Shown here: one piece after another, positions 2,573 through 30,026 of the stretch
Layout of the letters: each line of letters opens with the position of its first letter
How positions within the stretch are numbered: the first letter of the stretch is position 1
Assembly: GCA_947456915.1 (NCBI GenBank)
Contig: CANGUQ010000001.1
Span: 1-31,892, forward strand
Origin: Betaproteobacteria bacterium
GTDB taxonomy: Bacteria; Pseudomonadota; Gammaproteobacteria; Burkholderiales; CAIKXV01
Direction of reading: 5' to 3'
DNA: 31,892 bases
Notes under the pieces: model-generated
The model's database searches: none
Told to the model about the DNA's origin: nothing
Seen by the model: only the letters and a program-made list of their open reading frames with translations
Position numbers and translations under genes: made by a program

Positions 2573-2586
2573 GGTATCGGCTCCGG

Positions 2587-3147
2587 TCAGTCCTCGTACT
2601 TCGCACCCATCATCACGAAGGCCATCAGGCTGCCTTCGCGCGGGTTGCACCAGCCGTGCCAGTTGCCCAGCTGCACGACGACATCGCCGGGCTTCATCAC
2701 GTACTGACCGTCGTCGAGCAGCAGCACGCGTTCGCCTTCGAGCATGATCCCGTAGTCCACCGTCTCCGACTTGTGCACTGGCGAGGAGAATGCGTTTGCG
2801 CCGCCCTTGTCCCAGGTGCCGCCGTGGCGCTGGCGCGGCTCGTGCAGCGGCACGGCGGTGGCGTCCGTGGCCGGGTCGTATCCCGGCGGCTTCGCCGGCG
2901 ACTGCACGATGCGCAGATGCCCCCCGCTCTGCGGCGGCTCGAAGCTGAACGGCAACCGCCCGTCGTCGCGGTCGCCGGCAAGCGGTACCGGCACCTCGCG
3001 GTAGACCCAGGCATCGGTCATGCAGGTGCCGGGACGGATCGCCCCCGGATTCACGTTCGGTGCAGCGCTGTCGTAGAGCACGCAGGAACGCCCCTGCGCG
3101 TCATTGCCGGTGACCACCCGGCGGATCGGCTTGATGGCCGTGCTCAT
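2587..3147 (-). CDS. cupin domain protein
   Basis: IRRVVTGNDAQGRS N-terminus; VHKSETVDYGIMLEGE...PGDVVVQLGNWHGWCN cupin motifs; GGAGG Shine-Dalgarno upstream. Confidence 0.9.
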   Translation of the reverse strand: MSTAIKPIRRVVTGNDAQGRSCVLYDSAAPNVNPGAIRPGTCMTDAWVYREVPVPLAGDRDDGRLPFSFEPPQSGGHLRIVQSPAKPPGYDPATDATAVPLHEPRQRHGGTWDKGGANAFSSPVHKSETVDYGIMLEGERVLLLDDGQYVMKPGDVVVQLGNWHGWCNPREGSLMAFVMMGAKYED

Positions 3148-3369
3148 CGCATATCCTCCCGTCGATCGCGCGGGCCCGGCCCGGCCGTACCCGCCGGATC
3201 GCCCGCATCATCCACGCGTCGCCTGCGCGTGTTCCTCCCGAATGATGCCACCGCGCCGCTTCGCGCGCGCGCGATCAGGGGCACCGAGCGGCGTGCCGGT
3301 GCTCGCGCGCAGCGCACGCCACCGTGGAGGGCAGCGGCTGTCGACACCACGCCGTGTTCACGGTGGCGC

Positions 3370-3378
3370 TGCTAGACT
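3370..3378 (+). promoter_or_regulatory. putative extended -10 promoter element (TGcTAGACT)
   Basis: TG-n-TAGACT about 33 nt upstream of the ATG at 3411; no good -35 hexamer seen. Confidence 0.3.
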
Positions 3379-3410
3379 GGCTCGCCCAATCGTTGCGAAG
3401 GAGTGTCTTG

Positions 3411-4406
3411 ATGAAAACCCCGCTGATCGGCCTGCTGCTCGCCGCGCTGAGCGGCTGCGCGGCGATGACCGGCGGCACGCCGGGCGTCTCGATCGTGGTC
3501 GACCTCGATCCCGCGAGCAGCGATCGCACGGTCATCGTCGAGAACATCACCGCCGATCGCAACGGCCTGCTGTACATGGCAGACCGCGTCAGCGGCAACA
3601 TCCTGCGCGTGGATCCCGCCTCGCCGAAGCCGGTGGTGGTCGGACGCATCGAGGCGCGCGAGATCCAGGGCAGGAAGGTCAACGCCGACGCCTCTGGACT
3701 GGAGTTCGATGCACAGGGCGATCTGTTCGTCGCGGTCGGACCGTTCAGCGAGGTCGTGCGGTTTCGCGCAGCCGATCTGAATCCGTCGCGCCCGGGTGCT
3801 GCGCAGACCTTCGCTACCGGCACGCCGGGCGCGAACGGCATCGCGTTCGATCGGCAGGGCAACCTGTTCGTGTCGGGCGGCGCAAGCGGAACGATCTTCC
3901 GCATCCCGCCGCAGGGCGGTGCCGCACAACCCGTCGTGCAGATCGAGCGCTCGGTGCGCGTGCTGCCCGACGGCAAGACGCAGCAGCCCATCGTGGCCAA
4001 CGGACTTGCGTTCGACGCGAACGGCGTGCTGCACGTGGCCGACACCTCGCGCGGCGCGGTGTGGACGGTGCGCATCGGCGCCGATGGCAAGGGCGACAAG
4101 CCTGTGCTGCTCGCGCAGAATCCTCTGCTCGAAGGCGCCGATGGCCTCGCCTTCGATCGCCGCGGCAACCTGTGGGTGGCGGCGAACGAGCTCAACGCGA
4201 TCGTGTCGGTCAGCCGCAGCGGCGCGGTGCATGTCATCGCGCGCAACGGCAGCCACGGCCCGCTCGAGTTTCCGGCGTCGCTGGTGTTCGTCGGTGACAC
4301 CGCATACGTGGTGAACTTCGACGTGCCGCGGCGCGACAACATGGATGCCAACGGCACCACCGCGCGCGATGGGGTCGGGGCGTCGGTGGCGCGCATCTCG
4401 CGCTAG
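3411..4406 (+). CDS. SMP-30/gluconolactonase/LRE-family beta-propeller, predicted lipoprotein
   Basis: GAAGGAG SD before ATG 3411; MKTPLIGLLLAALSGC lipobox; repeated blade motifs GANGIAFD, VANGLAFD, GADGLAFDRRGNLWV. Confidence 0.88.
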   Translation: MKTPLIGLLLAALSGCAAMTGGTPGVSIVVDLDPASSDRTVIVENITADRNGLLYMADRVSGNILRVDPASPKPVVVGRIEAREIQGRKVNADASGLEFDAQGDLFVAVGPFSEVVRFRAADLNPSRPGAAQTFATGTPGANGIAFDRQGNLFVSGGASGTIFRIPPQGGAAQPVVQIERSVRVLPDGKTQQPIVANGLAFDANGVLHVADTSRGAVWTVRIGADGKGDKPVLLAQNPLLEGADGLAFDRRGNLWVAANELNAIVSVSRSGAVHVIARNGSHGPLEFPASLVFVGDTAYVVNFDVPRRDNMDANGTTARDGVGASVARISR

Positions 4407-4596
4407 CCGTACGCGACGCAGGGGCTGCAGCGGCTCGTTCGCAGCGCGGCTGCAGGACGACGGCGCTCCTCGTCACAGCGGCAAGCGTACCCGCGCAATC
4501 CGGTGACCGCGGGCACGACCCGGCTGTGGTCGGCACGATCGCTCGGCCGGCGCTCTGGCCGGTGGCGCCCGGCGTGAAGCGGATCCGGTTCGCCCC

Positions 4597-4854
4597 TCAA
4601 TAGTGCGGCGGCACCTCGTCGCCCGGGTCCCCGGTCGCCGAGCGCTCGGCCAGTTCCCCGAGTTGCTGGCGCAGCCGGGCGATCTCGCGCGCGAGCGACT
4701 CGATCTGCTGCTGCTGGCGGGCAACCGTCGCGTTCAGCGCGTCGACCAGATCCTCGCCGTAGCTCGCCTTCTCCTCGAGGGCGATCAGGCGCCGCTCGAT
4801 CGCGGTCGAGTAATGCACATCGGCAGGATCGGTATCCGGGCGGCTTCGCGCCAT
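4597..4854 (-). CDS. slyX: SlyX family protein
   Basis: IERRLIALEEKASYGEDLVDALNATVARQQQQIESL coiled coil and C-terminal DEVPPHY signature. Start uncertain (ATG 4854 or 4893). Confidence 0.88.
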   Translation of the reverse strand: MARSRPDTDPADVHYSTAIERRLIALEEKASYGEDLVDALNATVARQQQQIESLAREIARLRQQLGELAERSATGDPGDEVPPHY

Positions 4855-5061
4855 CGCGTCGGGACCGGTTTCGTTCTTCGGCAGTTCGGGCATCGCGACC
4901 ACTCTACCGCGTCCGCGCCGCAGCCGGCATCCGCGCGACTTCGCGAGCAGGCCATCGGCGCCGCAGGGCGCCGACACCCCCTGCGCGAGACTCGCGGGCA
5001 CCGGACCGTCGACGTTGCGCGATGTCGTGATTCATCGCTCGCGCGCGCGAGCGCCACGCGC

Positions 5062-6054
5062 TCACGCTTTCGACGTGCCGCTGATGCCGGTCGCAGACGC
5101 CGCCTGAGACAGCGGGCCCGGACTCTCGCGGCGCCCGTTGTCGCGCATCCTCGCTTCGATGGTCACCCGATCCCACTCGGGCGCAAGCATGCCGACGAAG
5201 TCGTAGAGCGTGCCGTGCAGATACGTTCCCCGTCGCAGCTCGATCTGGGTGATCGACGGTGGAAACAGATGCCTCGCGTCCAGCGCCCGCAGCCCGCGGT
5301 CGCGCCCCGGCTCGAACGCGATCGAGGGCAGGATCGCGATGCCCAGGCCGAGCTCGACATAGGCCTTGATCACGTCGGCATCGATCGCGCTCAGCACCAC
5401 GTTGGGGACGATCCGGGCCTGCTCGAACGCGTGCAGCACCGATGAGCCGCCGATGAAGCTCTGATCCAGCGTGAGGATCGGATAGGTGCCGACCCGCTTC
5501 ATCGTCGGGCGGCGCACGTCGGCGAGCGGATGCCCCTCGGGAACGATGATGCTGCGCTCGAGCCTCGCGCACGGCAGCATGACCAGATCGGCGACGCGCT
5601 CGGGTGGCTCGCTGGTGATGCCCACGTCGGCCTCGCCCCCCGCGACCCACTGCGCGATCTGCGACGGGCTCCCCTGCCGCAGCACGAGCTGCACCTCCGG
5701 GTGACGCTTGATGAACTCGCCGATCACCCGCTTGAGCACGTAGCGCGCGTGAATGTGCGTGGTGGCGAGTACCAGCCGTCGCTTCGCGTGCTGGAACTCC
5801 TCGGCAATGCGGCGCACGTTCTGGGCATCGTCGATCATCCGCCGGGCGGTGACCAGAATCTCCGCACCCGGCGCAGTCAGCCCCTCGATGCGGTTGCCGC
5901 GCCGCCTGAGCACCTGCACGCCGAGTTCCTCCTCGAGCAGCTTGATCTGCTTGCTGATGCCGGGCTGGGAGGTGTGCAGGGCCGCTGCGGCCCGCGACAT
6001 GTTGAAGCCCGCCTCGGCGATGCCGCACACGTAGCGGAGCTGGCGAAGATTCAC
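5062..6054 (-). CDS. CysB/Cbl-family LysR-type transcriptional regulator
   Basis: GTG start; NLRQLRY...LHTSQPGISKQIKLLEEELG helix-turn-helix; ATTH..ARY and DADVIKAYVELGLGI closely follow the CysB/Cbl pattern. Confidence 0.9.
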   Translation of the reverse strand: MNLRQLRYVCGIAEAGFNMSRAAAALHTSQPGISKQIKLLEEELGVQVLRRRGNRIEGLTAPGAEILVTARRMIDDAQNVRRIAEEFQHAKRRLVLATTHIHARYVLKRVIGEFIKRHPEVQLVLRQGSPSQIAQWVAGGEADVGITSEPPERVADLVMLPCARLERSIIVPEGHPLADVRRPTMKRVGTYPILTLDQSFIGGSSVLHAFEQARIVPNVVLSAIDADVIKAYVELGLGIAILPSIAFEPGRDRGLRALDARHLFPPSITQIELRRGTYLHGTLYDFVGMLAPEWDRVTIEARMRDNGRRESPGPLSQAASATGISGTSKA

Positions 6055-6140
6055 CTGCGAGGCCCTCCTGCAGACCGGAGTTCCGGTCGTTGCCCTGCGC
6101 TGCCGCAGACCCGGACAGCGATAACCGGACGGAATCGAGC

Positions 6141-6200
6141 AATACACAAATATTCTTTTCGAACATGATACGTCCGGAGTACAGTTGTGCAAAACAGATT
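6141..6200. promoter_or_regulatory. AT-rich divergent promoter region between the CysB-like regulator and the cupin operon
   Basis: Clear AT-rich patch in GC-rich DNA. Minus strand: TTGCAC (6192-6187), 16 nt, TATCAT (6170-6165). Plus strand: TACAGT (6180-6185) with a weak -35 TTTCGA (6157-6162). Confidence 0.5.
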
Positions 6201-6217
6201 CACGCAGGAGGAGCCCC

Positions 6218-6982
6218 ATGCCCGCCGTCGCTGGAGTGCACGGCGCTGATCCGGTCGTTGCCGAGCCGTCGGCTGCGCACGCGCAGCCCGCCGGGCTGCA
6301 CGTGGCGCGCGTCGCCACCATCCCCTGGGAGGACCGGATCAACGTCGACAACTGGCCGAGTCAGGCCGGCATGTACTTCGATGACCGGGACAACGCTTTC
6401 ACGCTGCGCCTGATCAACTATCCGGTGGGGTCGATCGAACCGCGTCACGTCCACGCCGGCTCGCATGCGACCACCGTGCTGCGCGGGCGCGCGATCGTCG
6501 ACGGCAGGACGCTGGGGCCGCTGGACGTGATCCTCGGCCCGTCGCACGAGCCGCACGGACCGATCCACTATCCGGACGGCTGCAGGCTGCTGAGTGCGTT
6601 CCAGGGCAGCTACTTTCACAGCGAGGTGCAGCAGCTCTCGGGTACGCCGCAGTACCGGCTGATCGAGAGCGCCGGTCTGCCGTGGCGCGAGGACACCGCG
6701 CGCAACGCCCGCGTGCGCACGCTCGTCGATCACGGGCTCGGGCGGCTGCTGGTGGAGGTGCTGCAGTTCGACGCAAACGCGCTGCTGCCGATCGCCCGCG
6801 AGCGCTGCGCGCAGGCGGTGCTGGTGGTCGCCGGCAACGTCGGCGTCGCGGCGAGCCACGCACCGGGAGCATCAGCGGCGCCGCTGGGGGAATGGGATTT
6901 CGCCTACCTGCGCGAGCGCGGCGATGCCCTGGCGCTGGAAGTGTCGGCCGGCAGCACGCTGCTGTGGTTGACGCTGCGCTGA
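6218..6982 (+). CDS. ChrR/Dke1/DAD-like cupin protein, probably a bicupin
   Basis: AGGAGG SD before ATG 6218; GSIEPRHVHAGSHATTVLRG (G-x5-HxH) and GPSHEPHG motifs; second cupin-like half without those His motifs. Confidence 0.75.
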   Translation: MPAVAGVHGADPVVAEPSAAHAQPAGLHVARVATIPWEDRINVDNWPSQAGMYFDDRDNAFTLRLINYPVGSIEPRHVHAGSHATTVLRGRAIVDGRTLGPLDVILGPSHEPHGPIHYPDGCRLLSAFQGSYFHSEVQQLSGTPQYRLIESAGLPWREDTARNARVRTLVDHGLGRLLVEVLQFDANALLPIARERCAQAVLVVAGNVGVAASHAPGASAAPLGEWDFAYLRERGDALALEVSAGSTLLWLTLR

Positions 6983-7066
6983 GCGCTGCGACGGGCGGAC
7001 AGGGCGACGGTAACGGGAACCGGCACCGATTCCGACACGAACTCGAGACATCCGGGAGAGCAGATC

Positions 7067-8776
7067 ATGAGCAAGCAGAGCGGTGCCGACTTCATCGCCC
7101 AGGCCGTGCACGCCTACGGCATCAGCCACGTGTTCTTCGTGCCGGCGATCCTGCTGCGCGCGCTCGCGAAGATGGAACCGCTGGGCATCACGCGGGTGAT
7201 GGCGCACGGCGAGAAGGCCACCGCCTACATGGCCGACGGCTACGCGCGCGCGGCACGCAAGCCCGGTGTGGTCCTCGCGCAGCACATCGGCGGCTCGAAC
7301 CTTGCCGCCGGATTGCGCGACGCCTTCCTCGCCGGCTCGCCGGTGGTGGCGATCACCGGCGGACCGATCACTGCCACGCGCTACCGACATGCGTACCAGG
7401 ATCTGGAGCACTTCAGCCAGTTCGATCCGACCACCAAGTTCAACGCACGCGTGGACGACATCTCGCGGCTGGCCGACCTGTGGCAGACGGCGATGCGCGA
7501 AGCGGTGACCGGTGCGCCCGGTCCGGTGCATCTGGAGATCCGCGGTCACCACGCGGAGATCACGCTGGCCGAGGCGGAATTCCCGACTCTCGATGCACGC
7601 TGGACAGCAGTGCCGCCGTTTCGCCCCTCGGCCGACGCGGCCAGCGTCGAATCGGCCCTCAAGCGGCTTGCCGCCGCGCAGCGTCCGGTGATCGTCGCCG
7701 GCGGCGGTGTTGCGTGGTCGGGCGCACAGGCCGAGGTGGTTGCGCTTGCCGAGCGGCTGCAGATTCCGGTGGCGACCTCGCTCAACGGCAAGGGAACGAT
7801 CACCGAGACCCACCCGCTGGCGGTAGGGGTGTGCGGCGGCTACTCGCGCGCCTGCGCGAACCAGACGGTGGCTGCCGCCGACGTCGTCCTGTTCATCGGC
7901 AGTCACACCGGCGGGCAGGTCACCACCGGCTGGAAGGTGCCGCGCCCGGGTACCACGGTGATCCATCTCGACATCGACGCGGCGGAAATCGGCCGCAACT
8001 ACCCGACCGAGATCGCGCTCGTCGGCGATGCAAAGACCGTCCTGCAGCAGATGCTCGATGCCGCCACCGCTTCGCCCGCACTCGCCGCAGCAGCGAACGA
8101 CAGGGCGCCGTGGCTCGCGCAGGCGCGCGGCTTCGTCGAGACGTGGCGCGCCGGACTCGCCGCCCTGATGCAGTCCGACGCGGTACCGATGCGCCCGGAA
8201 CGCCTGTGCGCGGAGATCAGCCGCGCGCTGCCCGAAGGCGGCGTACTGGTTTCCGACACGGGACACTCGGGCATCTGGACCGGCGCGCTGGTGGAGTTCA
8301 CGCGGCCCGGGCAGCGGATGATCCGCTGTGCCGGGTCGCTCGGCTGGGCGCTTCCGGGAGCGATCGGGGTCAAGTGCGCGCTCCCCGCTTCGACCGTGGT
8401 GGCGTTCGCCGGCGACGGCGGCTTCTACTACCACATGGCCGAGCTGGAAACAGCCGCGCGCTACGGCATCAACATCGTGATGGTGGTGAACAACAACAGT
8501 TCGCTCAATCAGGAGATTCCGCTGATCGACGACGCCTACGGTCAGGCGATCACCGAGAAGAGCCGCGAGCTGTGGGGCTTTCGCGACGTGAACTTCGCGA
8601 ACATCGCCCAGAGCATGGGCTGTCTGGGCATTCGCGTCGAGCGCCCATCGGATCTGCCGGCGGCGTTCGCCCGCGCGTTCAGCGCCGGGCGACCCGTGGT
8701 GCTCGACGTCGTCACCGACTTTCGTGCGATGGCGCCCAAGGCGTGGACGGGCACCGCAGGCGGTGGCGGTCACTGA
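7067..8776 (+). CDS. thiamine diphosphate-dependent enzyme (acetolactate synthase-like fold)
   Basis: HGEKATAYMADGYAR (catalytic Glu), PGPVHLEI, VIVAGGGV, HLDIDAAEIGRNYP and GDGG...NNN ThDP-binding motif. Confidence 0.93.
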   Translation: MSKQSGADFIAQAVHAYGISHVFFVPAILLRALAKMEPLGITRVMAHGEKATAYMADGYARAARKPGVVLAQHIGGSNLAAGLRDAFLAGSPVVAITGGPITATRYRHAYQDLEHFSQFDPTTKFNARVDDISRLADLWQTAMREAVTGAPGPVHLEIRGHHAEITLAEAEFPTLDARWTAVPPFRPSADAASVESALKRLAAAQRPVIVAGGGVAWSGAQAEVVALAERLQIPVATSLNGKGTITETHPLAVGVCGGYSRACANQTVAAADVVLFIGSHTGGQVTTGWKVPRPGTTVIHLDIDAAEIGRNYPTEIALVGDAKTVLQQMLDAATASPALAAAANDRAPWLAQARGFVETWRAGLAALMQSDAVPMRPERLCAEISRALPEGGVLVSDTGHSGIWTGALVEFTRPGQRMIRCAGSLGWALPGAIGVKCALPASTVVAFAGDGGFYYHMAELETAARYGINIVMVVNNNSSLNQEIPLIDDAYGQAITEKSRELWGFRDVNFANIAQSMGCLGIRVERPSDLPAAFARAFSAGRPVVLDVVTDFRAMAPKAWTGTAGGGGH

Positions 8777-8821
8777 TCGCGGCAGCGACACTTCATCGAA
8801 ACGCGGAACGAGGAAGCACGC

Positions 8822-9739
8822 ATGGCTCTTGAACTCGATAGCGCAAGCGCCGGCTTCTCCCGGCTGGTCGATGCCGATGCACCGTTCGACCGCATCGCGC
8901 ACGGCCTGTACTTCGGCGAAGGCCCGGTGTGGGACCGACGCACCAAGCAGCTCTACTGGGTCGACATCATCGGCAACACGATCTGGAAATGGCGTCCCGG
9001 CGGCGGGCAGGACATCGTGATGCGCCCCTCGGCGCATGCCAACGGCATGACCTTCGACCGCGAGGGCCGGCTCAACGTGGCCGGCTGGTGCTCGCGCTCG
9101 GTGTGGCGCTTCGAGCCCGACGGCACGTGCACCACGCTCGCCTCGCACTACGACGGGGTGAAGATCAACACGCCCAACGACATCGTCGTGCGCTCCGACG
9201 GGCAGGTCTACTTCACCGACTCCGCCGGCGGCCTGGTGATCCCGGGCATGGTGGCGGAGGACGTGCAGCGCTACCTCGACTTCCAGGGCGTTTACCGGGT
9301 CGGCGGCGATGCGGCCACCGGCGGCAGCGATCGGCTGCAGCTCGCGAGCGACGAGGTGAGCTACCCGAACGGACTCGCCTTCTCCCCCGACGAGAAACTG
9401 CTGTACGTGAACGACACGCGGCAGGCCTACATCCGCGTGTTCGACGTCAACGCCGACGGCAGCCTCGGTCCCGGGCGACGTTTCCACGACATGACGGGAA
9501 CCGAGGGCGGAGTCGCCGACGGCATGAAGTGCGACAGCGAAGGCAACGTGTGGTGCACCGGTCCCGGCGGGCTGCACGTGATCGACCCTTCCGGAAAGCT
9601 GCTCGGGCGCATCTTCGTGCCCAGCCATCACGCCACCAACTTCTGCTGGGGGGGTGATGACTGGCGCACGCTGTACATCACCACCTTCACCTCGGTCTGG
9701 CGCACTCGCGTGAAGCTGCCCGGCATCCCCGTGTGGTGA
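8822..9739 (+). CDS. SMP-30/gluconolactonase family protein (canonical metal ligands)
   Basis: FGEGPVWD, ANGMTFD, TPNDIVV, YPNGLAFSPDEKLLYV, ADGMKCDSEGNVW, TNFCWGG. Confidence 0.94.
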   Translation: MALELDSASAGFSRLVDADAPFDRIAHGLYFGEGPVWDRRTKQLYWVDIIGNTIWKWRPGGGQDIVMRPSAHANGMTFDREGRLNVAGWCSRSVWRFEPDGTCTTLASHYDGVKINTPNDIVVRSDGQVYFTDSAGGLVIPGMVAEDVQRYLDFQGVYRVGGDAATGGSDRLQLASDEVSYPNGLAFSPDEKLLYVNDTRQAYIRVFDVNADGSLGPGRRFHDMTGTEGGVADGMKCDSEGNVWCTGPGGLHVIDPSGKLLGRIFVPSHHATNFCWGGDDWRTLYITTFTSVWRTRVKLPGIPVW

Positions 9740-9812
9740 GCGCGCCGGCTCTGCGGCCGAACACTGATCGAATACGCAATTCGCAACCGGTGCGCGCACC
9801 GGCAGGAGAACG

Positions 9813-10733
9813 ATGATGGGATGGAGCTTCGAAACGGTGAGCGGGCCTGGCGGCACACCCTTCACCGGCGCACTGGGCGGACTCGCCTGGGACGGCAGCG
9901 GTCTGCTGGTGAGCGCAACGGAAGCCGGATTCATCTATCGCCTCGATCCGGCGAGCGGTGCGGTGACCGAGTGGCGCAAATACGCCAATCGCGTCAACGG
10001 CATCGCGTTCTCGACCGAGCCGGGTGTGCTGTTCGGCTGCCAGGAGGGCGGCCGACGGGTGATCCAGTTCCAGCCGCGCGGCACGGCAAACCCGACGGCC
10101 ACCCGCATCGACGGCGCCGTGCACAACTTCCCGTGCGATCTGTGCGTCGACCGTGCAGGACGCGTCTGGTTCTCCGACCCGTACAGCCACGTCCTGTCGT
10201 TCGGACCGCAGATCTTCCCGCCGCTGCACCACGCCTCGGTACTGCGCCTCGCACGCGACGAGCGTGCGCACTGGCACCTCGACCGGGTCACCGAGGACAC
10301 ACATGCGCCACGCGCGCTGGTGCTCTCGCCCGACGAGAAGACGCTCTATCTCGCCGAAGGCGAGGTCGGTCGGCCGGGGCCGCGCGAACTGCGCGCCTAT
10401 CCGGTCGATGCCCACGGCCATGTCGGCCGGCCCGTCGTGCTGCACACCTTCGGCAGTGACCATCGTGGCGAGCATCGCGGCATCGAAGGACTCTGCCTCG
10501 ACTCCGCGGGCAACCTGATCGCCGTGTGCGGCGCCCGCGCCGCCGGTCCCGGTCCGCACGTGATGGTGTTTTCGCCCGCGGGTACGGTACTCGAGTCACA
10601 CCCGCTGCCCGAGGATCTGCCGGCGCGCTGTGCGTTCGGCGGCCCGGCACTCGACACGCTGTACATCTCGACGCTGACCGGCAAGATGATCAAGGCCACC
10701 GGCATCGGGCGCAGCGGGTACCGGAGGTTCTAG
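9813..10733 (+). CDS. SMP-30/gluconolactonase-like protein with substituted metal ligands
   Basis: AGGAG SD; VNGIAFS, FPCDLCVDRAGRVWFSDP, LSPDEKTLYLA, EGLCLDSAGNL, CAFGGPALDTLYIST propeller blades. Confidence 0.88.
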   Translation: MMGWSFETVSGPGGTPFTGALGGLAWDGSGLLVSATEAGFIYRLDPASGAVTEWRKYANRVNGIAFSTEPGVLFGCQEGGRRVIQFQPRGTANPTATRIDGAVHNFPCDLCVDRAGRVWFSDPYSHVLSFGPQIFPPLHHASVLRLARDERAHWHLDRVTEDTHAPRALVLSPDEKTLYLAEGEVGRPGPRELRAYPVDAHGHVGRPVVLHTFGSDHRGEHRGIEGLCLDSAGNLIAVCGARAAGPGPHVMVFSPAGTVLESHPLPEDLPARCAFGGPALDTLYISTLTGKMIKATGIGRSGYRRF

Positions 10734-10811
10734 CCGGGCGGTGGTTGCGTGGTGAGGCGTTGACTTTGTGGAGAGGCCCCGGCAGAGGGCCGCAAACCCG
10801 AGGAGGTCGAT

Positions 10812-11813
10812 ATGCTCACAGTGCGTTGGCAGAGGATCGTGCTGGAGGTCGCCGTCGCGCCGGCAGCCGCAGTCGGCGTGGCGGTGCTGGGCGCGCTGGC
10901 GGCACCGGTGCCGGTATCGGCGCAGGAGTTTCCGCAAAAGCCGATCCGCATCGTCGTCGGGCCCGGCCCGGACGTCGTCGGACGCCTGCTCGGCGCGCAG
11001 TTCACCGAGACGTGGGGCCAGCAGACGGTCATCGATCCACGCCCGGGCGGCGGTGGTGTCATCGCTGCCGAACTGGTAGCGAAGGCGCCGGCAGACGGCC
11101 ATACGCTGCTGCTGGGCAGCGCCGCCTACACGATCAATGCGGTGCTGCAACCCGGTTCGACCGACCTGATGCGCGACTTCACGCCGGTGGCGTTCGCCGC
11201 CTCCTCGCCGTTCGTGCTGCTCGTGCACCCTTCGCTGCCGGTGAAATCAGCGGCGGAGTTCGTCGCGCTCGCGCGCAAGCGGCCCGGGCAGATCAACTAC
11301 GCGTCCTCGGGCAACGGTACGCCGCCGCACCTGGCCGGCGAGCTGTTCAAGTCCTCGGCGAAGATCGATCTGGTACACGTGCCGTACAAGTCGGCGGGCC
11401 CGGCGATCATCGACGCGGTCGCCGGCCATGTGCAGATGATGTTCGGGATCGCTTCGGTGGCGGTGCCGCAGATGCAGGGCGGCAAACTGCGCGGGCTGGC
11501 AGTGACCAGTCGCGAGCGCTCCCGCCTGGCCCCGGAACTGCCTACGCTCGCCGAGGCCGCCGGGCTGCCGGGCTTCGAGGTGATCGGCTGGAACGGACTC
11601 CTCGCGCCGGCGGCCACGCCGCGGGCGGTGGTCGGTCGACTCAACGCCGAGTCGATGCGCGCGCTGGCCAAGCCGGAGTTCCAGGCGAAGCTGATCGCGG
11701 CCGGGTACGAGCCCGGCGCGCCGAACACGCCGGAGCAGTTCGTAGAGTACATGCGCGGCGAGATCGCCCGCTGGACGAAGCTCGTGAAGGAAACAGGAAT
11801 GAAGGTGGATTGA
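10812..11813 (+). CDS. TctC/Bug-family substrate-binding protein
   Basis: AGGAGGT SD; signal peptide; ADGHTLLL, YASSGNGTPPHL, HVPYKS, GKLRGLAVT motifs. Confidence 0.94.
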   Translation: MLTVRWQRIVLEVAVAPAAAVGVAVLGALAAPVPVSAQEFPQKPIRIVVGPGPDVVGRLLGAQFTETWGQQTVIDPRPGGGGVIAAELVAKAPADGHTLLLGSAAYTINAVLQPGSTDLMRDFTPVAFAASSPFVLLVHPSLPVKSAAEFVALARKRPGQINYASSGNGTPPHLAGELFKSSAKIDLVHVPYKSAGPAIIDAVAGHVQMMFGIASVAVPQMQGGKLRGLAVTSRERSRLAPELPTLAEAAGLPGFEVIGWNGLLAPAATPRAVVGRLNAESMRALAKPEFQAKLIAAGYEPGAPNTPEQFVEYMRGEIARWTKLVKETGMKVD

Positions 11814-11936
11814 GCCGTGAAGCCGCGCGGGGGCAGGCCCGGTCCGCTCCCGCGGCGCGCAGCGGCAACGGATGATGCGTGCGCCGCGCGCGCGCGCGTC
11901 AAGAGTGACGCATCCGACCTGCAAGCACAGACCACG

Positions 11937-12962
11937 ATGACCCGCACACCCTCTGCCGATGCCGTGACCCGCGGCCAGCCTGCACGCACGGGCGCTCTGG
12001 CGCTCGCGTGCGCCACGCTGCTGGTTGCAGCCGCACCGGTGCCGGCGCAGACCCCGCCGCGCGATTACCCGTTGAAGGCGCTGCGACTGGTTGCGCCGTT
12101 TCCGCCTGGCGGCTCGTCGGATCTCGTCGCGCGGGTGGTGGCCCAGGGTCTCGCCGAAGCGCTGGGCCAGGCAGTGATCACCGACAATCGCGCCGGTGCC
12201 GGCGGCAGCGTGGGCAGCGCGCTGGTGGCGAAATCGGCACCGGACGGCTACACGCTGCTGCTCGCCGGCGTGGGCCCGATCGCCACCAACGTGCACCTCT
12301 ACCCGGATGTCGGCTACGACCCGTTGCGCGACTTCGCCGCGCTGACCCCGGTGGCGAGCGCACCGACGATGCTGGTCTCGCACCCGAGCGTTCCGGCGAA
12401 GAACGTGAAGGAGCTGCTCGCGCTGGCACGACAGAAGCCGGGCTGGCTCACCTGCGGTTCGGGCGGGGTGGGCACCCCCGCCCACCTGGGCTGCGAGATG
12501 TTCAAGCTGCTCGCCCGGGTCGACATCCTGCACGTGGCCTACAAGGGCAGCGGCCAGGCGATCAACGACCTGCTCGGTGGCCAGATCCACCTCGTGTTCG
12601 CGAGCACGCCGGTCGGCGTGCCGAATCTGCGCAACGGCAAGCTGCGCGGCTTCGCCGTCACCTCGGCTGCGCGCACGCCGCAGGCACCCGAGCTGCCCAC
12701 GCTGGACGAATCCGGCGTGAACGGATACGTGTTCGACAGCTGGTGGGGCGCCTTCATGCCCGCACGCACCGCAGCGCCCATCGTCGAGCGCGTCGCCAGC
12801 GAAATCGGTCGCATCGTGCAGCTGCCCGACACGCGCGAGCGCTTCGCCACGCTCGGCCTGGACCCGTACGTGCTCACCCCGAAGCAGTTCGCCGCCATGG
12901 TGCGCGCCGACGTCGAGCGCATCGGGCGACTGGTGCGCGAAGCGGGAATAAAGCCCGAGTGA
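11937..12962 (+). CDS. TctC/Bug-family substrate-binding protein
   Basis: PFPPGGSSDLVAR, DNRAGAGG, PDGYTLL, HVAYKG, GKLRGFAVT motifs. Start re-picked at ATG 11937. Confidence 0.94.
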   Translation: MTRTPSADAVTRGQPARTGALALACATLLVAAAPVPAQTPPRDYPLKALRLVAPFPPGGSSDLVARVVAQGLAEALGQAVITDNRAGAGGSVGSALVAKSAPDGYTLLLAGVGPIATNVHLYPDVGYDPLRDFAALTPVASAPTMLVSHPSVPAKNVKELLALARQKPGWLTCGSGGVGTPAHLGCEMFKLLARVDILHVAYKGSGQAINDLLGGQIHLVFASTPVGVPNLRNGKLRGFAVTSAARTPQAPELPTLDESGVNGYVFDSWWGAFMPARTAAPIVERVASEIGRIVQLPDTRERFATLGLDPYVLTPKQFAAMVRADVERIGRLVREAGIKPE

Positions 12963-13098
12963 TGCACGAGCGCTCCCCCGATACCGCTGCGCGGCCGGCC
13001 AGTTGCACCACCATCGCAGCCGGCGGCAGCGGCCGCGCGCGCCTGTCGCGCCGGTCCGCCGTCGTCTCCCGCAACCCGAGAGCCCACCGGAGCACGCA

Positions 13099-14124
13099 AT
13101 GACCCGCCGCAGCAAGACGACCGCGAAGCCGCGCCGCATCGACGTGCACAGCCACGTGATTCCGAAGCCGATGCTGGAGGCGATCGAACGCGACCCGGCA
13201 CGCTTCCAGATGCGTTTCGAGATGCGTGACGGCAGGCGCCGCATCGTGCGCGAAGGCGGCAACGTGTTTCCCGTGTACGACGAGTTCTCCGATGCCGCGG
13301 TGAAGGTCGCCGGCATGGACCGCAAGGGTCTGGACGTGTCGTTCATCTCGCCGGCGCCGATGGTGCTGTTCTACTGGCTCGACGCCGATGTCGCGCTCGA
13401 AGGCTCGCGCATCGTCAACGACGGCATTGCCGAGATGGTGGCGCAGTATCCGGATCGGCTGAAAGGCATGGGCACGCTGCCGATGCAGCACCCTGATGCG
13501 GCGATCGCCGAGCTGGAACGCATCGTGCGCGATCACGGGTTTCGTGCGATCGAGCTCGGCACGTCGGTCGGCGAGGAGCAGCTCTCCGACCCGCGATTCC
13601 GGCCGGTGCTGCGGCGCGCGCAGGAGCTCAAGGTGTTCATCTTCGCGCACCCGTACTCGTTCACGCCAGAGTGCGGCACGGAGCACTACCACCTGCGCAA
13701 TCTGATCGGCAACCCGCTGCACACGACGATCATGGTCGGCAACCTGATGTTCAGCGGCGCGCTCGACGATCTGAAGACGCTGAAGATCGTGCTCGCGCAC
13801 GGCGGGGGCTACGTTCCCTACCAGATCGGTCGCTTCGTGCACGGGCACAAGGTGCGCCACGACACGAAGCAGCACACGAGGACCTCTCCCGAGAAGATGC
13901 TGCGGCGGTTCTGGTACGACGCTCTGGTACACGACGAGCGCGCGCTGCGCTATCTGATCGATCGCGTCGGTGCGGACCGTGTCGTGCTCGGCACCGACGC
14001 TCCGTTCGACATGGGCGAGGAAGCGCCGCTCGCGCGACTCGCGCAGGTGAAGCGGCTGACTCCTGCCGAGCGGGCGATGATCGTCCACGGCAACGCGCAG
14101 AAGCTCTACGGGAGAAAGCTGTAG
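13099..14124 (+). CDS. amidohydrolase-2 family metalloenzyme (ACMSD-like decarboxylase/hydratase)
   Basis: IDVHSHVIP (HxH), FAHP, VLAHGGGYVPYQIGR and VLGTDAPFDMG motifs. Start re-picked at ATG 13099. Confidence 0.9.
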   Translation: MTRRSKTTAKPRRIDVHSHVIPKPMLEAIERDPARFQMRFEMRDGRRRIVREGGNVFPVYDEFSDAAVKVAGMDRKGLDVSFISPAPMVLFYWLDADVALEGSRIVNDGIAEMVAQYPDRLKGMGTLPMQHPDAAIAELERIVRDHGFRAIELGTSVGEEQLSDPRFRPVLRRAQELKVFIFAHPYSFTPECGTEHYHLRNLIGNPLHTTIMVGNLMFSGALDDLKTLKIVLAHGGGYVPYQIGRFVHGHKVRHDTKQHTRTSPEKMLRRFWYDALVHDERALRYLIDRVGADRVVLGTDAPFDMGEEAPLARLAQVKRLTPAERAMIVHGNAQKLYGRKL

Positions 14125-14126
14125 CG

Positions 14127-15239
14127 ATGGTCACCGCCGATCGCATGCACCGGCGTCGCGTGCGCTGCCGTATGCCGCGGCCGGAGCGCGCCGGCTGCGC
14201 TCCCGGAACGGGTTGCGGCTGCGCTGCGGTGAAAGCGCCTCGCCGCGTACCGCTGCGGTGCGCAGTCGTGGCGCTGGCCGCGGTTGCGACGGTCGATCCC
14301 GGCTGGGCACAGTCCCCTGGCGCGTCGGCTGGCGCGACGAACTTTCCCACGCGTTCGCTGCGCCTGATCGTGCCTTCGGGCCCGGTCGGACCGAGCGATT
14401 TCCTCGCCCGGGCACTCGCCTCGCGACTGGCGGAGAACCTGAAGCAGCCGGTGACCGTCGACAACCGGCCGGGCGCGGGCGGTACGCTGGGTACCACGCT
14501 CACCGCGCGCGCGGCGCCCGACGGCTACACGCTGCTGGTGATGGGTCTGAACAACTATGCGATCAACGCAACCCTCTACGGCTCGCTCCAGTACGACCCG
14601 CTGAAGGATCTCGCACCGGTGTCGATCCTCGCCGAGGCGCCGCTGCTGATCGCCGTGCACCCGTCGGTCCCGGCGAAGAGCGTGGCGCAGCTGGTCGCGC
14701 TTGCGCGCAATCACAGGAAGGGTCTCGACTATGCCTCGGGCGGCGCAGGCACCGGCCCGCACCTGGCGATGGAGCTGTTTCTCGAGCGCACCGGCGTCAG
14801 GATGGAGCACATCCCCTACAAGGGGGCGGGCGCAGCGCTGAACGAGCTGATCGCCGGCCAGGTCGGCGTGACGATGGTCAACATGACCGCCGGACTGCCG
14901 TTCGTGCGGGCGGGCAAGCTGCGCGCGATCGCGGTGACCAGCGCCGCGCGAGCGCCGAGCGCGAAGGACATCCCGACCATCGCCGAATCCGGTTATCCCG
15001 ACTTCATCACTACCGGTCAGCACTTCGCCGTCGTTCCCGGCGCCACCCCGCGCGAACTGGTCGCTCGACTGCACGGCGAACTCACGCGGGCGATCCACTC
15101 GCCCGAAGTGCGCGAGCGACTCGCCGCAGAGGGCTCGGAGATCGTCGGCAGCACACCGGAGCAGGCCGCGCAGGTCACGCGCGAGGAGATCGCGCGCTGG
15201 GCGAAGGTGATCAGGCGGCTGGGGTTGACGGCGAACTGA
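14127..15239 (+). CDS. TctC/Bug-family substrate-binding protein
   Basis: VDNRPGAGG, PDGYTLL, YASGGAGTGPHL, HIPYKG, GKLRAIAVT motifs. Start uncertain (ATG 14127, ATG 14172 or GTG 14229). Confidence 0.92.
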   Translation: MVTADRMHRRRVRCRMPRPERAGCAPGTGCGCAAVKAPRRVPLRCAVVALAAVATVDPGWAQSPGASAGATNFPTRSLRLIVPSGPVGPSDFLARALASRLAENLKQPVTVDNRPGAGGTLGTTLTARAAPDGYTLLVMGLNNYAINATLYGSLQYDPLKDLAPVSILAEAPLLIAVHPSVPAKSVAQLVALARNHRKGLDYASGGAGTGPHLAMELFLERTGVRMEHIPYKGAGAALNELIAGQVGVTMVNMTAGLPFVRAGKLRAIAVTSAARAPSAKDIPTIAESGYPDFITTGQHFAVVPGATPRELVARLHGELTRAIHSPEVRERLAAEGSEIVGSTPEQAAQVTREEIARWAKVIRRLGLTAN

Positions 15240-15304
15240 GACGATGCGCCGGCCCGGCTGCACCGCCGCCAGCGGGCGGCGTCAACCCGGCGTACCGCGC
15301 GCGC

Positions 15305-15337
15305 TGCCGGCATGTCCGGTGCGCCGTGATGCCGGCA
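15305..15337. terminator. GC-rich hairpin between convergent genes (possible terminator or stabiliser)
   Basis: 9-bp inverted repeat TGCCGGCAT...ATGCCGGCA between convergent stops at 15239 and 15413; no U-tract. Confidence 0.25.
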
Positions 15338-15412
15338 CACGACCGGCTCACGCGACCCGCTTCGCCCTGCGCCGCAATTGCGCCGGGCCGGTGGCGGTCC
15401 GCTCCGGCTCGC

Positions 15413-15817
15413 TCACGCTTCTCGCCACTGCGCGATGTCGAAGGTGTCCGGAACAGGCAGGATCAGGCTGCGCCGCGGGCCGATCAGCTCGCGCGCCATG
15501 TGCCCCTCGCCCACGGTGTCCTCGGCGAACAGCACGTCGCCGGGGCCGAACACCCGGCTGCTGCCGTCCCCGACCTTGAGTTCCACAGCGCCGCTCAGCG
15601 TGATCACGAACTGCCGCTGCGGCGGGGTGTGAAAGTCGGGGGACCCGTCGAGCGGATTCTCGCGAAAGACGACGCCCTTCACGGGAACCATCTGCGTCTT
15701 GTAGGAGAACAGCGTCCCGAGCCTGAACTCGTCCATCGGCAGGTACAGATCCTCGAAGTGCGATCGTCCGTCATCGCCCGTGTAGACCCGCACGATCCTC
15801 GTTCGCCTGTCGCTCAT
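15413..15817 (-). CDS. small cupin domain protein
   Basis: C-terminal 134 aa of ORF 15413..16879: RIVRVYTGDDGRSHFED, DFHTPPQRQFVITLSG, FGPGDVLFAEDTVGEGH. ATG is 2 nt after the upstream stop. Confidence 0.85.
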   Translation of the reverse strand: MSDRRTRIVRVYTGDDGRSHFEDLYLPMDEFRLGTLFSYKTQMVPVKGVVFRENPLDGSPDFHTPPQRQFVITLSGAVELKVGDGSSRVFGPGDVLFAEDTVGEGHMARELIGPRRSLILPVPDTFDIAQWREA

Positions 15818-15819
15818 CG

Positions 15820-16836
15820 TCACTCCACCTTGGCCTTCGACCGCCGCACCACGACCGCCCACTTCGCGAGCTCGGACTCGATGTAGCGGGCGAACTCGGC
15901 GGGCGAACTGCCGACGATGTCGATGCCCTGCGCCTCGAACGCCTCGCGCACATCGTTCATCTTCAGGATGTTCATCGTCTCCTGGTACAGCCGGTCGATC
16001 ACCTCCGCCGGAGTGCCCGCGGGTGCGAGCATGCCGTACCAGGCGCTCGACTCGAACTTCGGGATGGTTTCGGCGAACGTCGGCACCTCGGGTGCGGCTG
16101 CAGAGCGCTTCGCCCCGGTCATGCCCAGCGCGCGAAGCTTGCCCGCCTTCACGTGCCCGATCACCGAGGGCATGCTCACCATCATCAGCGGTACCTGACC
16201 ACCGAGCACGTCGGTGACCGCGGGCGCGGCGCCGCGGTAGGGAACGTGCACGATGTCGATGCCGGTCTCCATCCTGAGCAGCTCGGCCGACAGGTGGGCC
16301 GTGGAGCCGCTTCCCGCCGTCGCGTAGTCGAGCTGGCCGGGTCGGGCTCTGGCAAAGGCGATGAAATCCTTCAGCGACCTGACCGGCAGCACCGGGTTGG
16401 CAACCAGGATGTTCGGCACCGATCCGACCAGCGAGACAGGCGCAAAGCTCCTGACCGGATCGAACGGGATCTTGCCGTACAGCGCCGGGTTGACCGCCAG
16501 CTGCGCACTTGCGGCGAACAGCAGGGTGTGGCCGTCGGGGGGCGCATTGGCGGCCATCTCGGCAGCGATGTTCCCGCCCGCACCGGCCCGGTTGTCGATG
16601 ACTACCTGCTGGCCCCAGCGCTCGGACATCTTGCGCCCGATGGTTCGCGCCATGATGTCGGTGGCGCCCCCCGGCGGAAACGGAACGATGACCCGAATGG
16701 CACGCACGGGATAGGCGATCTTCGTCGCGGGTGCCTGCGCATGCGCGGCGCCGGCAAGGCCGGCAACGCAGAATCCGCAAAGCGCGGCAAGCGTTGCTGC
16801 CGCGCGCGCGAGGGTGCCGGTCGCGCAGCTGTCCAT
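15820..16836 (-). CDS. TctC/Bug-family substrate-binding protein
   Basis: PFPPGGATDIMAR, DNRAGAGG, HVPYRG, GKLRALG motifs. Its ATG overlaps the upstream stop (TGATG). Confidence 0.95.
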   Translation of the reverse strand: MDSCATGTLARAAATLAALCGFCVAGLAGAAHAQAPATKIAYPVRAIRVIVPFPPGGATDIMARTIGRKMSERWGQQVVIDNRAGAGGNIAAEMAANAPPDGHTLLFAASAQLAVNPALYGKIPFDPVRSFAPVSLVGSVPNILVANPVLPVRSLKDFIAFARARPGQLDYATAGSGSTAHLSAELLRMETGIDIVHVPYRGAAPAVTDVLGGQVPLMMVSMPSVIGHVKAGKLRALGMTGAKRSAAAPEVPTFAETIPKFESSAWYGMLAPAGTPAEVIDRLYQETMNILKMNDVREAFEAQGIDIVGSSPAEFARYIESELAKWAVVVRRSKAKVE

Positions 16837-20047: not shown

Positions 20048-20132
20048 GTCCGGTTCCTCGCGGGTTCGTTGAACGTTGTGGTGGGATTGCGGATTCGGGA
20101 AATCGCGGCGGCCCCTTCGTGCAGGGGCGCGA

Positions 20133-21569: not shown

Positions 21570-21660
21570 GCGGTCTCCAGTGAAGCGGTAGTCGCGGGGC
21601 CGGTGCGCAGTGTCGCACCGCTTCCGGCACAGGCGCACCGGAAGCCGGACACCGGGCCGC

Positions 21661-22845: not shown

Positions 22846-22866
22846 CGCTTCACCGTCCCGCCGTCG

Positions 22867-23880: not shown

Positions 23881-24158
23881 GGACTCCTCCGGAATTTCGT
23901 TGCGTTGCGTGACGGGGACGCTGCGCCGGACACGTGCCGGCGCTGCTGCCGGGGCCGGCGCAGCGCGCTGGCGCCCGCATCCACCAGCCAGGGCGGCAAC
24001 GTGATCGGCCCGCAGCACGACCGGGCGCCGTGCACGGTCGGACCCGCCCCGGGTGGTCGCGTGGACCCGTCACCGGCCCGCGCCCGTCCCCACGACCCGG
24101 GAAGTCTACCGCATGGACGGTAGCCGGCTGTTGCCGCAGCGGCGCCTGCGGGTGGCGA

Positions 24159-27627: not shown

Positions 27628-27694
27628 CGCGGCGCCCCCATGCGCGGCAGTCTCCTGCTTGTCGTTGGCGGGCGGGCGTGTCGCATCTTCGCGC

Positions 27695-29998: not shown

Positions 29999-30026
29999 GC
30001 CGGTCTCCCGCGAGCGTGCGTGCGGT

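Follow-up and report, generated by a model that had tools for sequence, protein, structure and literature searches.

A conserved gene cluster around a divergent regulator

The stretch of DNA analysed here (31,892 nt of contig CANGUQ010000001.1; hereafter the window) comes from a betaproteobacterium and carries, at 5062-15239, a LysR-type regulator gene facing eight co-directional genes. These encode a bicupin, a thiamine diphosphate (ThDP) enzyme, two SMP-30 proteins (SGL1 and SGL2), three TctC-family binding proteins and an amidohydrolase. We show that the locus harbours a real, conserved and so far undescribed gene cluster, which is probably catabolic. The source assembly is a metagenome-assembled genome (MAG) of 4.0 Mb, 83% complete, and the carrier is known from metagenomes alone. 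DNA nearly identical to 5900-15300 is present in lake-water, freshwater and drinking-water metagenome DNA runs from three separate studies, which suggests that this is a widespread freshwater bacterium.

The gene map is based on frame analysis by GC content at third codon positions (GC3) and on Pfam and NCBIfam scans of the window. An earlier reading of this DNA (the original prediction) had proposed the regulator and the eight genes, with gaps of about 2-136 nt and an AT-rich divergent region at 6055-6217. These analyses found every named gene again in its place. The gaps in the run (6218-15239) measure 84, 45, 73, 78, 123, 136 and 2-104 nt, and the divergent region has a GC content of 57%, with a core at 43%, against 69% in the window. 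The features of the cluster are the following.

2000-2578 (start approximate), minus strand: monocupin gene cupB, ~190 aa; Cupin_2 at 5e-9
2587-3147, minus strand: monocupin gene cupA, 186 aa; Cupin_2 at 1e-5, under the Pfam cut-off
5062-6054 (GTG start at 6054), minus strand: CysB-family LysR regulator; HTH_1 and LysR_substrate domains; NF009327 at 365 bits
6055-6217: divergent intergenic region between the LysR and bicupin genes
6121-6170: candidate operator, a motif kept across orthologous intergenic regions
6218-6982, plus strand: bicupin, 254 aa; weak Cupin_2 and Cupin_7 matches
7067-8776, plus strand: ThDP enzyme; all three TPP domains
8822-9739, plus strand: SGL1, canonical SMP-30 protein; PF08450 at 3e-56, 191 bits
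9813-10733, plus strand: SGL2, substituted SMP-30 protein; PF08450 at 8e-27, 94.9 bits
10812-11813, plus strand: TctC_1; PF03401 at 2.5e-56
11937-12962, plus strand: TctC_2; Pfam TctC
13099-14124, plus strand: amidohydrolase resembling 2-amino-3-carboxymuconate-6-semialdehyde decarboxylase (ACMSD); Pfam Amidohydro_2
14127 or 14229 to 15239, plus strand: TctC_3; Pfam TctC

Conservation and inheritance of the gene set

A scan for the bicupin in one genome per GTDB species gave 70 loci, all from MAGs, mostly of Burkholderiales/Betaproteobacteria and some of Alphaproteobacteria. In the 68 loci where the bicupin matched over at least 60% of its length, we searched for the other window proteins with tblastn up to 10 kb from it. 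Many of these contigs are short, and counts are also given for the 27 loci in which the bicupin has 8 kb or more of flanking sequence on each side.

ThDP enzyme: 32 of 68 loci; 15 of 27 long-flank loci
cupA: 23 of 68; 11 of 27
cupB: 22 of 68; 11 of 27
SGL1: 13 of 68; 8 of 27
SGL2: 13 of 68; 8 of 27
LysR: 13 of 68; 7 of 27
Amidohydrolase: 4 of 68; 3 of 27

The ThDP gene is present in 12 of the 13 loci with the SGL pair, the cupins in 11-12 and the LysR gene in 10. The neighbourhood search suggested by the original prediction recovered the same combination in the same order in the related MAGs L006, L009-L011 and G015, at 67-90% identity. Apart from this window-type order (LysR<>bicupin-ThDP-SGL1-SGL2-TctC...), there is a second betaproteobacterial order, LysR<>ThDP(-ThDP)-TctC-bicupin-cupA-cupB ... 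ThDP-SGL1-SGL2-TctC(-SGL1-SGL2-TctC), and an alphaproteobacterial one, LysR<>cup-cup-DctP-DctQ-DctM-bicupin-SGL1-SGL2-x-ThDP-cup-cup. The gene set is thus kept while its order is shuffled, as is classically seen in functional units.

The bicupin is found in 3 of 201 genomes sampled evenly from the taxonomic order. Within the genus, G015 carries one cluster (LysR 85%, bicupin 69%, ThDP enzyme 81% and SGL2 81% identical), whereas G073, G123 and G167, which are 97-100% complete, lack all four genes; the best LysR matches in these three genomes are 43%-identical CysB paralogues. By this pattern, the cluster and its regulator are accessory and are gained or lost as a unit. The synteny in MAGs, the joint presence or absence within the genus and the conserved operator motif described below show together that the arrangement is not due to chance.

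The idea that the eight genes form one unit holds for part of them only: the genes from the bicupin to TctC_1 (bicupin-ThDP-SGL1-SGL2-TctC_1) are widely conserved, whereas TctC_2, the amidohydrolase and TctC_3 are lineage-specific. The proposed boundaries of the unit, 5062-15239, enclose the regulator and core genes but miss the conserved cupA/cupB pair at 2000-3147, which lies directly 3' of the LysR gene in G015 and L006. As delimited by these sequence comparisons, the conserved core consists of the LysR, ThDP and bicupin genes, SGL1/SGL2, TctC_1 and cupA/cupB.

Pieces of the cluster recur outside it. The source genome has paralogues of the ThDP enzyme (65%) and SGL1 (50%) on contig C453, of cupA/cupB (45-47%) on C37 and of SGL2 (44%) on C89. 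G015 holds a further module at C28:184000-200000 (L083), in the order MR_MLE, acyl-CoA-dehydrogenase-like, alpha/beta-hydrolase, ThDP, SGL1, SGL2 and TctC. Some MAGs have three bicupin paralogues. A 248-aa protein lacking a Pfam match is encoded between the ThDP gene and the bicupin in L016/L007 (5243-5989) and in 11 other loci; its proximity to EthD/DUF4286/ABM-like proteins in the ESM Atlas is a lead only. No homologue of the bicupin was found in the plasmid collection.

A dedicated regulator and its putative operator

The best NCBIfam match of the regulator is the CysB family (NF009327, 365.4 bits against a cut-off of 402), and its score to the CysB model proper (NF009326) is 324.6 bits against a cut-off of 436. 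It combines the HTH_1 and LysR_substrate domains with divergent orientation and a conserved candidate operator that includes an inverted repeat of the ATAAC-N5/6-GT(T)AT type, the marks of a LysR regulator with a divergent operon. In 13 loci, and also in G015, the cluster is faced by a divergent orthologue 45-85% identical to it. The genome encodes three CysB-family paralogues, of which the C433 copy alone passes the family cut-off (445.7 vs 402 bits). We rejected the identification of the window copy as the housekeeping CysB, since it is one of three paralogues, scores lower than another and is co-inherited with the cluster. By its matches and its co-inheritance with the cluster, the window LysR is a cluster-specific CysB-family paralogue.

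The orthologous intergenic regions of 10 betaproteobacterial loci have in common the motif ATAAC-N7/8-(T)ATCGA-N3-AT(A)-N5-AA(T/G)ATTCTTTT-N3/4-CAT. They keep it both where the bicupin gene comes first downstream and where the ThDP gene does. A single copy is present in the 4.0 Mb assembly, at 6121-6170, which is also the lowest-GC stretch of the intergenic region (43%). Its left part is, in several loci, a perfect ATAAC-N5-GTTAT inverted repeat; repeats of this type are classic LysR T-N11-A boxes. Conservation across ten loci and a single copy in the genome argue for dedicated control of the divergent operon, and support 6121-6170 as its putative operator. One sigma-70-like promoter is predicted at 6193..6165, facing the LysR gene. 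Terminator-like sites are absent from 4400-15900, where shuffled sequences would give 3.8.

Enzymes of the core

The bicupin is ChrR-like and is the signature gene of the system. It has 459 homologues in a large protein collection, all of MAG or metagenome origin and none from a named cultured organism, and those that carry a name are labelled hypothetical or generic cupin. H77, H79, H83 and H113 in its first domain, a four-His motif, are invariant in 48 homologues. The AlphaFold model (predicted local distance difference test, pLDDT, 89.8) shows a generic bicupin fold with a best template modelling (TM) score of 0.73, to 2qdr, and its fold matches are led by ChrR-like proteins, ureidoglycine aminohydrolase and quercetinase. 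Against PDB, phmmer found no match and a profile search only the ChrR-like protein 3o14 (6e-5). Fold searches with the bicupin and SGL2 models returned generic bicupin and lactonase folds and no specific function; labels in the ESM Atlas are limited to "ChrR cupin-like", "SMP-30" and "hypothetical/EthD-like".

The two monocupins travel together. Orthologues of cupA (47-90% identity) occur in 23 of the 68 loci and those of cupB (55-70%) adjoin cupA in 22. Invariant H125, D131 and H164 in cupA give it a possible 2-His-1-Asp metal site; cupB conserves H119, Q123, E137 and H162. Searches of PDB with the monocupins matched structural-genomics cupins only. Distant homologues of cupA lie beside fumarylacetoacetase (FAH)-family genes and TctC in Variovorax and Bradyrhizobium.

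The ThDP enzyme shows the features of its superfamily, i.e. three TPP domains, the activating Glu and a GDG-x(24-27)-NN motif. All 48 orthologues compared keep both E49, as activating Glu, and the motif for the cofactor, G449-D450-G451...N475-N477. Yet, the enzyme falls under every NCBIfam cut-off. Glyoxylate carboligase was rejected as an identity (273.6 and 214.9 bits against Gcl cut-offs of 791 and 711), as was biosynthetic acetolactate synthase (320.2 bits against 538); E. coli Gcl, unlike the window enzyme, presumably has Val at the position of the activating Glu. In PDB the best match is glyoxylate carboligase (4e-63), with cyclohexane-1,2-dione hydrolase at ~1e-50; glyoxylate carboligase, acetolactate synthase and cyclohexanedione hydrolase score 173-217 bits and benzaldehyde lyase ~106 bits. 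The enzyme belongs to an unassigned subfamily of the acetolactate synthase/glyoxylate carboligase superfamily. A 49%-identical enzyme is encoded on plasmids of Achromobacter insolitus and A. denitrificans (NZ_CP026974, CP150726), its gene having a canonical SGL lactonase gene on one side and TctC genes on the other. The order of that unit is TauD/TfdA-GntR-TctC-SGL-ThDP-TctC-SDR (SDR, short-chain dehydrogenase/reductase), with a glucose 1-dehydrogenase gene and a further SGL gene nearby.

SGL1 has the SMP-30 lactonase fold with its E/N/N/D metal site: E33, N119, N183 and D233 are present in all 17 orthologues. Its best PDB matches are the putative gluconolactonases 3e5z (4e-37) and 3dr2 (4e-34), and its N-terminus, read by eye, has no signal peptide. 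From these residues and matches, SGL1 is predicted to be a canonical cytoplasmic lactonase of the SMP-30/gluconolactonase type with a complete metal site.

SGL2, encoded directly 3' of SGL1 in all 16 pairs, is different. Its AlphaFold model (pLDDT 90.4) is a six-blade SMP-30 propeller with TM scores of 0.74-0.78 to lactonases; 6-deoxy-6-sulfogluconolactonase is one of many fold matches, at 0.72. The original prediction was right in calling it substituted, as all four ligand positions have changed (G22/C108/R167/E225 for E/N/N/D) and vary among relatives. The metal tetrad is replaced by conserved Q77, R81, R82, H104 and N105 (a Q-RR-HN motif). An exhaustive search found 76 representative clusters at E <= 1e-30, of which 34 full-length representatives were aligned. 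Q77, R81 and R82, with H or Q at 104 and without E/N/N/D, are present in 27 of these 34; 6 keep E/N/N/D with Glu at 77, as does a 38%-identical homologue from Haloferax volcanii. The Q/R/R pattern shared by relatives suggests that SGL2 represents a distinct subfamily under selection and not a decaying copy.

Transport proteins and the lineage-specific tail

The genome has ~350 TctC-family frames and four TctA genes. Expansion of such orphan Bug proteins is familiar from Bordetella and Cupriavidus, and this genome is an extreme case of it. With so many frames, adjacency of a TctC gene weighs little by itself. TctC paralogues are ~42% identical in the background, and TctC_2 and TctC_3 drop to this level beyond the closest relatives. 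Orthologues of TctC_1 (63-66%) directly follow SGL2 in L051, L056 and L063, and the ThDP gene in L016. TctC_1 is therefore likely to be the cognate binding protein of the core, as far as synteny and identity can tell. Every version of the cluster has uptake components for organic anions, i.e. binding proteins of tripartite tricarboxylate transporters (TTT) in Betaproteobacteria and DctPQM of tripartite ATP-independent periplasmic (TRAP) transporters in Alphaproteobacteria. The closest PDB entries to the alphaproteobacterial DctP are 4p56 (8e-50) and 7nr2, which probably bind mandelate and aromatic 2-oxo acids.

The amidohydrolase had been read as a decarboxylase-type enzyme, and this agrees with our results: it is of the ACMSD type, matching human ACMSD at 3e-61. 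It keeps the ACMSD-type residues H9, H11, H176, D292, H226, R43/R45 and R237, whose roles we assume to be those of the Pseudomonas fluorescens enzyme. Further PDB matches are isoorotate, 5-carboxyvanillate and gamma-resorcylate decarboxylases. The gene stands near the bicupin in 4 of the 68 loci, besides G015 and L006, and the amidohydrolase with the last two TctC genes is confined to close relatives and one more distant locus. The largest gaps of the run, 123 and 136 nt, lie on either side of TctC_2. In terms of gene conservation, TctC_2-amidohydrolase-TctC_3 (11937-15239) looks like a lineage-specific tail. Four more ACMSD-like paralogues, 50-56% identical, are encoded on contigs C61, C101, C25 and C90.

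Genes around the cluster

The following features flank or interrupt the cluster.

3-992, plus strand: TctC_a, TctC-family binding protein; PF03401 at 1.3e-67; outer cluster edge in close relatives
1000-1977, minus strand: TctC_b, TctC-family binding protein; PF03401 at 7e-61; 3' of the cupin pair
3324-4406, plus strand: beta-propeller gene; weak SGL/NHL/ScyE-like matches
4597-5001, minus strand: slyX; Pfam SlyX
15413-18572, minus strand: second ThDP unit, 3' of the run (ThDP2, TctC_4 at 15820-16800, a 125-aa cupin)

L006 and G015 have orthologues of both binding proteins at the corresponding place, 80% identical for TctC_a and 74% for TctC_b, the latter also in L009-L011. The propeller and slyX genes (3324-5001) are a lineage-specific insertion that separates the LysR gene from the cupin pair: G015, L006, L010 and L011 lack them at this place, and L009 has the propeller (3324-4406) at 69% identity. 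ThDP2 matches the uncharacterised PRK06112 subfamily, "acetolactate synthase catalytic subunit", at 904 bits (cut-off 673). We rejected the unit of ThDP2, TctC_4 and the small cupin as a part of the system, because searches gave only ~35% cross-hits and relatives have other genes at the 3' side. Beyond it, housekeeping genes adjoin the accessory cluster: class I fructose-bisphosphate aldolase, pyruvate kinase, phosphoglycerate kinase, glyceraldehyde-3-phosphate dehydrogenase and transketolase on the minus strand (19019-26189), ntrX/ntrY-like genes (26347-30163) and rsmB (30619-31890).

A probable catabolic pathway for an imported lactone or oxo acid

We consider it probable, if far from certain, that this is a dedicated catabolic cluster combining lactone opening with ThDP chemistry on an imported acid. 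Our best guess for the substrate, which would be imported, is an acidic keto-lactone or the corresponding 2-oxo acid; a sugar-derived keto-lactone seems slightly more likely than an aromatic acid. The accessory cluster would be switched on by its own CysB-derived LysR through the conserved operator in the divergent promoter region. The substrate would be an acidic lactone, most likely a sugar-acid keto-lactone or reductone (dehydroascorbate-like or keto-aldonolactone-like); TctC_1 would bind it, and a TctAB channel with genes at another place in the genome would take it up. In the cytoplasm, ring opening by SGL1 may then yield a 2-oxo or diketo acid, which the ThDP enzyme would decarboxylate or cleave next to a carbonyl. 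Metal-dependent steps on enolisable intermediates, i.e. O2-dependent cleavage or isomerisation, could fall to the four-His bicupin and the monocupin pair. SGL2, having lost the metal site and gained an arginine-rich motif, would bind or rearrange the ring-opened polycarboxylate instead of hydrolysing it. In this lineage, the ACMSD-type enzyme might remove a further carboxyl group.

The pairing of a lactonase with a ThDP enzyme is chemically sensible if the substrate is a 2-keto-lactone, because its hydrolysis yields a 2-oxo acid, a standard substrate of ThDP enzymes. For a sugar-derived substrate we count the GFO/IDH/MocA dehydrogenase gene that follows the run in close relatives and the enolase-superfamily gene in the paralogous ThDP-SGL1-SGL2-TctC module of G015. 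The relatives of SGL1 are sugar lactonases and, with the Achromobacter context, this leads us to favour sugar lactones. Several points weigh on the other side. No enzyme of the cluster reaches a curated functional family, so that each chemical step is inferred. To our knowledge, all ACMSD-type decarboxylases act on aromatic carboxylates or ring-cleavage products; this, the dioxygenase-like metal motifs of the cupins and the FAH-family hydrolases beside distant cupA homologues favour an aromatic substrate. The core has none of the dehydratases, aldolases or kinases typical of sugar-acid routes. With ~350 TctC genes some of those in the cluster may be bystanders. And the runs listed as holding this stretch are DNA metagenome runs only, with no RNA run among them.

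The most serious alternative keeps the same cluster and changes its substrate to an aromatic 2-hydroxy or 2-oxo acid of the mandelate or phenylglyoxylate type, or to some other aromatic carboxylate. The oxo acid would then be decarboxylated by the ThDP enzyme, the cupins would be dioxygenases that cleave the ring, SGL1 would hydrolyse a lactone derived from it and the ACMSD-like enzyme would decarboxylate the product of ring fission. The amidohydrolase and its matches among decarboxylases fit this, as do the four-His motif of the bicupin, the H-x5-D...H motif of cupA, an FMN-dependent 2-hydroxy-acid dehydrogenase gene that adjoins the bicupin in 6 loci, the Variovorax and Bradyrhizobium neighbourhoods of distant cupA homologues, and the nearness of the alphaproteobacterial DctP to 4p56 and 7nr2; the likeness of the 248-aa protein to EthD/ABM-type proteins is a further lead. 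But the ThDP enzyme is far closer to glyoxylate carboligase, acetolactate synthase and cyclohexanedione hydrolase than to benzaldehyde lyase, most versions lack the ACMSD-like gene, and no ring-hydroxylating oxygenase, aldehyde dehydrogenase or hydratase-aldolase is found in the conserved set. The sugar lactones suggested by SGL1 and the Achromobacter unit also speak against it, and we regard an aromatic substrate as unlikely, though worth keeping in mind.

The original prediction had suggested a link to sulfur or organosulfonates. This did not survive scrutiny, since the regulator is cluster-specific, the enzymes have average Cys+Met contents and the ThDP enzyme is not Xsc. A system for scavenging sulfur or using organosulfonates under CysB/Cbl-type control, with an Xsc-like ThDP enzyme and a lactonase like that of the sulfo-Entner-Doudoroff (sulfo-ED) pathway, is thus very improbable in our view. 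It could claim CysB as the best family match of the regulator and the resemblance of SGL2 to a sulfogluconolactonase, and also the genes of the TauD/TfdA family found by one distant bicupin homologue, ~5 kb upstream in G015 and beside the Achromobacter ThDP-SGL unit; that family is, however, broad. The regulator falls under the CysB-family cut-off, which the C433 paralogue passes (446 bits), and is missing from same-genus genomes without the cluster. The Xsc-like role proposed for the ThDP enzyme fails against TIGR03457 (229 bits, cut-off 676) and NF005713 (234 bits, cut-off 620). Enzymes of the operon lie between the 42nd and 86th genome percentiles for Cys+Met and only the bicupin is low, at the 5th (a soft criterion); with no such depletion or sulfur economy, the sulfate-starvation reading was rejected. 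The conserved set contains no sulfite exporter, sulfite dehydrogenase, desulfonating monooxygenase or sulfo-ED dehydratase/aldolase. More improbable still is that there is no single system, but chance neighbours in a TctC-crowded genome or two or more independent transcription units. The abundance of TctC in 4 Mb, the two wide gaps around TctC_2, the restriction of the tail genes to close relatives and the lack of a listed RNA run would fit this. Yet, the core is co-conserved in shuffled order across two proteobacterial classes, is gained and lost jointly within the genus, shares a conserved operator motif and has no terminator-like site within the run; chance is already contradicted by synteny. 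We give the least credit to a biosynthetic cluster, in which ThDP carboligation and cupin tailoring would build a small metabolite. The solved structures nearest to the ThDP enzyme include carboligases (glyoxylate carboligase, acetolactate synthase, BbmA), and cupins and propellers are also found in natural-product pathways. But periplasmic binding proteins for uptake (TTT or TRAP) are found in every version, an exporter, adenylating enzyme or synthase in none, and a divergent LysR-type activator is typical of catabolic operons.

Catabolism of an imported lactone or oxo acid leaves room for a bolder proposal, which we think distinctly unlikely: a new type of pathway for acidic keto-lactones or reductones, where, once the canonical lactonase has opened the ring, SGL2 with its QRRHN motif would be a metal-free enzyme of rearrangement or isomerisation descended from a lactonase, and the ThDP enzyme, of a new subfamily, and the four-His bicupin would go on to cleave the carbon chain. 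If true, one operon would hold three new enzyme activities, acting on ascorbate- or dehydroascorbate-like compounds of freshwater and soil dissolved organic matter. The carriers of the cluster are Burkholderiales of freshwater, groundwater and soil with extreme numbers of TctC proteins, and presumably feed on dissolved organic matter at low concentrations. Naming the substrate would thus name one compound used by these bacteria. The locus also shows cleanly how a CysB-family regulator can be recruited to a catabolic operon unrelated to sulfur, and how a pseudo-lactonase can be retained by selection next to a canonical one.

Comparison with known systems

The original prediction recognised no named pathway in this gene combination, nor did we: searches of PDB and NCBIfam gave no match to it, and our literature searches found no paper on it. 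The nearest analogue in logic is the betaproteobacterial L-ascorbate pathway of Cupriavidus necator H16 attributed to Stack et al. 2020 (J Am Chem Soc 142:1657; cited in PMC11066805). There, a gluconolactonase-family lactonase is said to open dehydroascorbate, a propeller-fold protein to rearrange 2,3-diketogulonate in a reaction of the benzilic-acid type, and an enzyme of the amidohydrolase superfamily to take part, a trio resembling SGL1, SGL2 and our amidohydrolase. That pathway reportedly also uses cytochrome b561 and a PdxA-family decarboxylase and has neither a ThDP enzyme nor cupins. The window cluster has both of the latter, its amidohydrolase is of the ACMSD type and missing from most versions, and neither b561 nor PdxA genes were seen in the conserved neighbourhoods.

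Routes for sugars and uronates built on SMP-30 lactonases (xylonolactonase XylC, gluconolactonase, L-arabinolactonase) share with the cluster the fold, E/N/N/D site and best matches of SGL1, and the GFO/IDH/MocA dehydrogenase gene that follows the run in relatives is a further likeness. But they go on through a dehydratase, aldolase or semialdehyde dehydrogenase, none of which is in the conserved set, and they have no ThDP enzyme, bicupin or paired pseudo-lactonase. The catabolism of myo-inositol, with the ThDP diketone hydrolase IolD and the cupin isomerase IolB, also links a ThDP enzyme of the acetolactate synthase superfamily to a cupin, here the bicupin, and cyclohexane-1,2-dione hydrolase is among the better PDB matches of the window enzyme (~1e-50). 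Yet, no IolD model is among the top 25 NCBIfam matches listed for it, the top folds of the bicupin are not IolB or KduI, and IolE, IolC and IolJ genes are absent here. In the kynurenine and 2-nitrobenzoate pathways 3-hydroxyanthranilate dioxygenase (HAO) acts with ACMSD, which recalls the possible 2-His-1-carboxylate site of cupA and the ACMSD-type enzyme. Here, however, the ACMSD-like gene is outside the conserved core, a PDB search with cupA detected no sequence similarity to HAO, and neither HAO nor aminomuconate-semialdehyde dehydrogenase genes accompany the ACMSD-like gene in the window or the conserved neighbourhood, as they would for ACMSD proper. Genes for later steps of those pathways are likewise absent.

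With the regulators CysB, Cbl and SsuR the window LysR shares its domain architecture, and CysB is its best family match. It differs by scoring under the curated cut-offs, by being a third paralogue co-inherited with the cluster and by having its own operator motif. In Achromobacter, a cultured member of the same taxonomic order, the plasmid unit has the 49%-identical ThDP enzyme next to an SMP-30 lactonase and TctC genes. But it has no bicupin, monocupin pair or SGL2-type protein, its regulator is of the GntR and not the LysR type, and it is also uncharacterised. Operons in which LysR controls uptake proteins together with enzymes are in themselves ordinary. The novelty of this one is that its families are almost all without a characterised member: a four-His ChrR-like bicupin, a paired monocupin, an unassigned ThDP subfamily and an SMP-30 propeller with an arginine-rich motif in place of the metal site.

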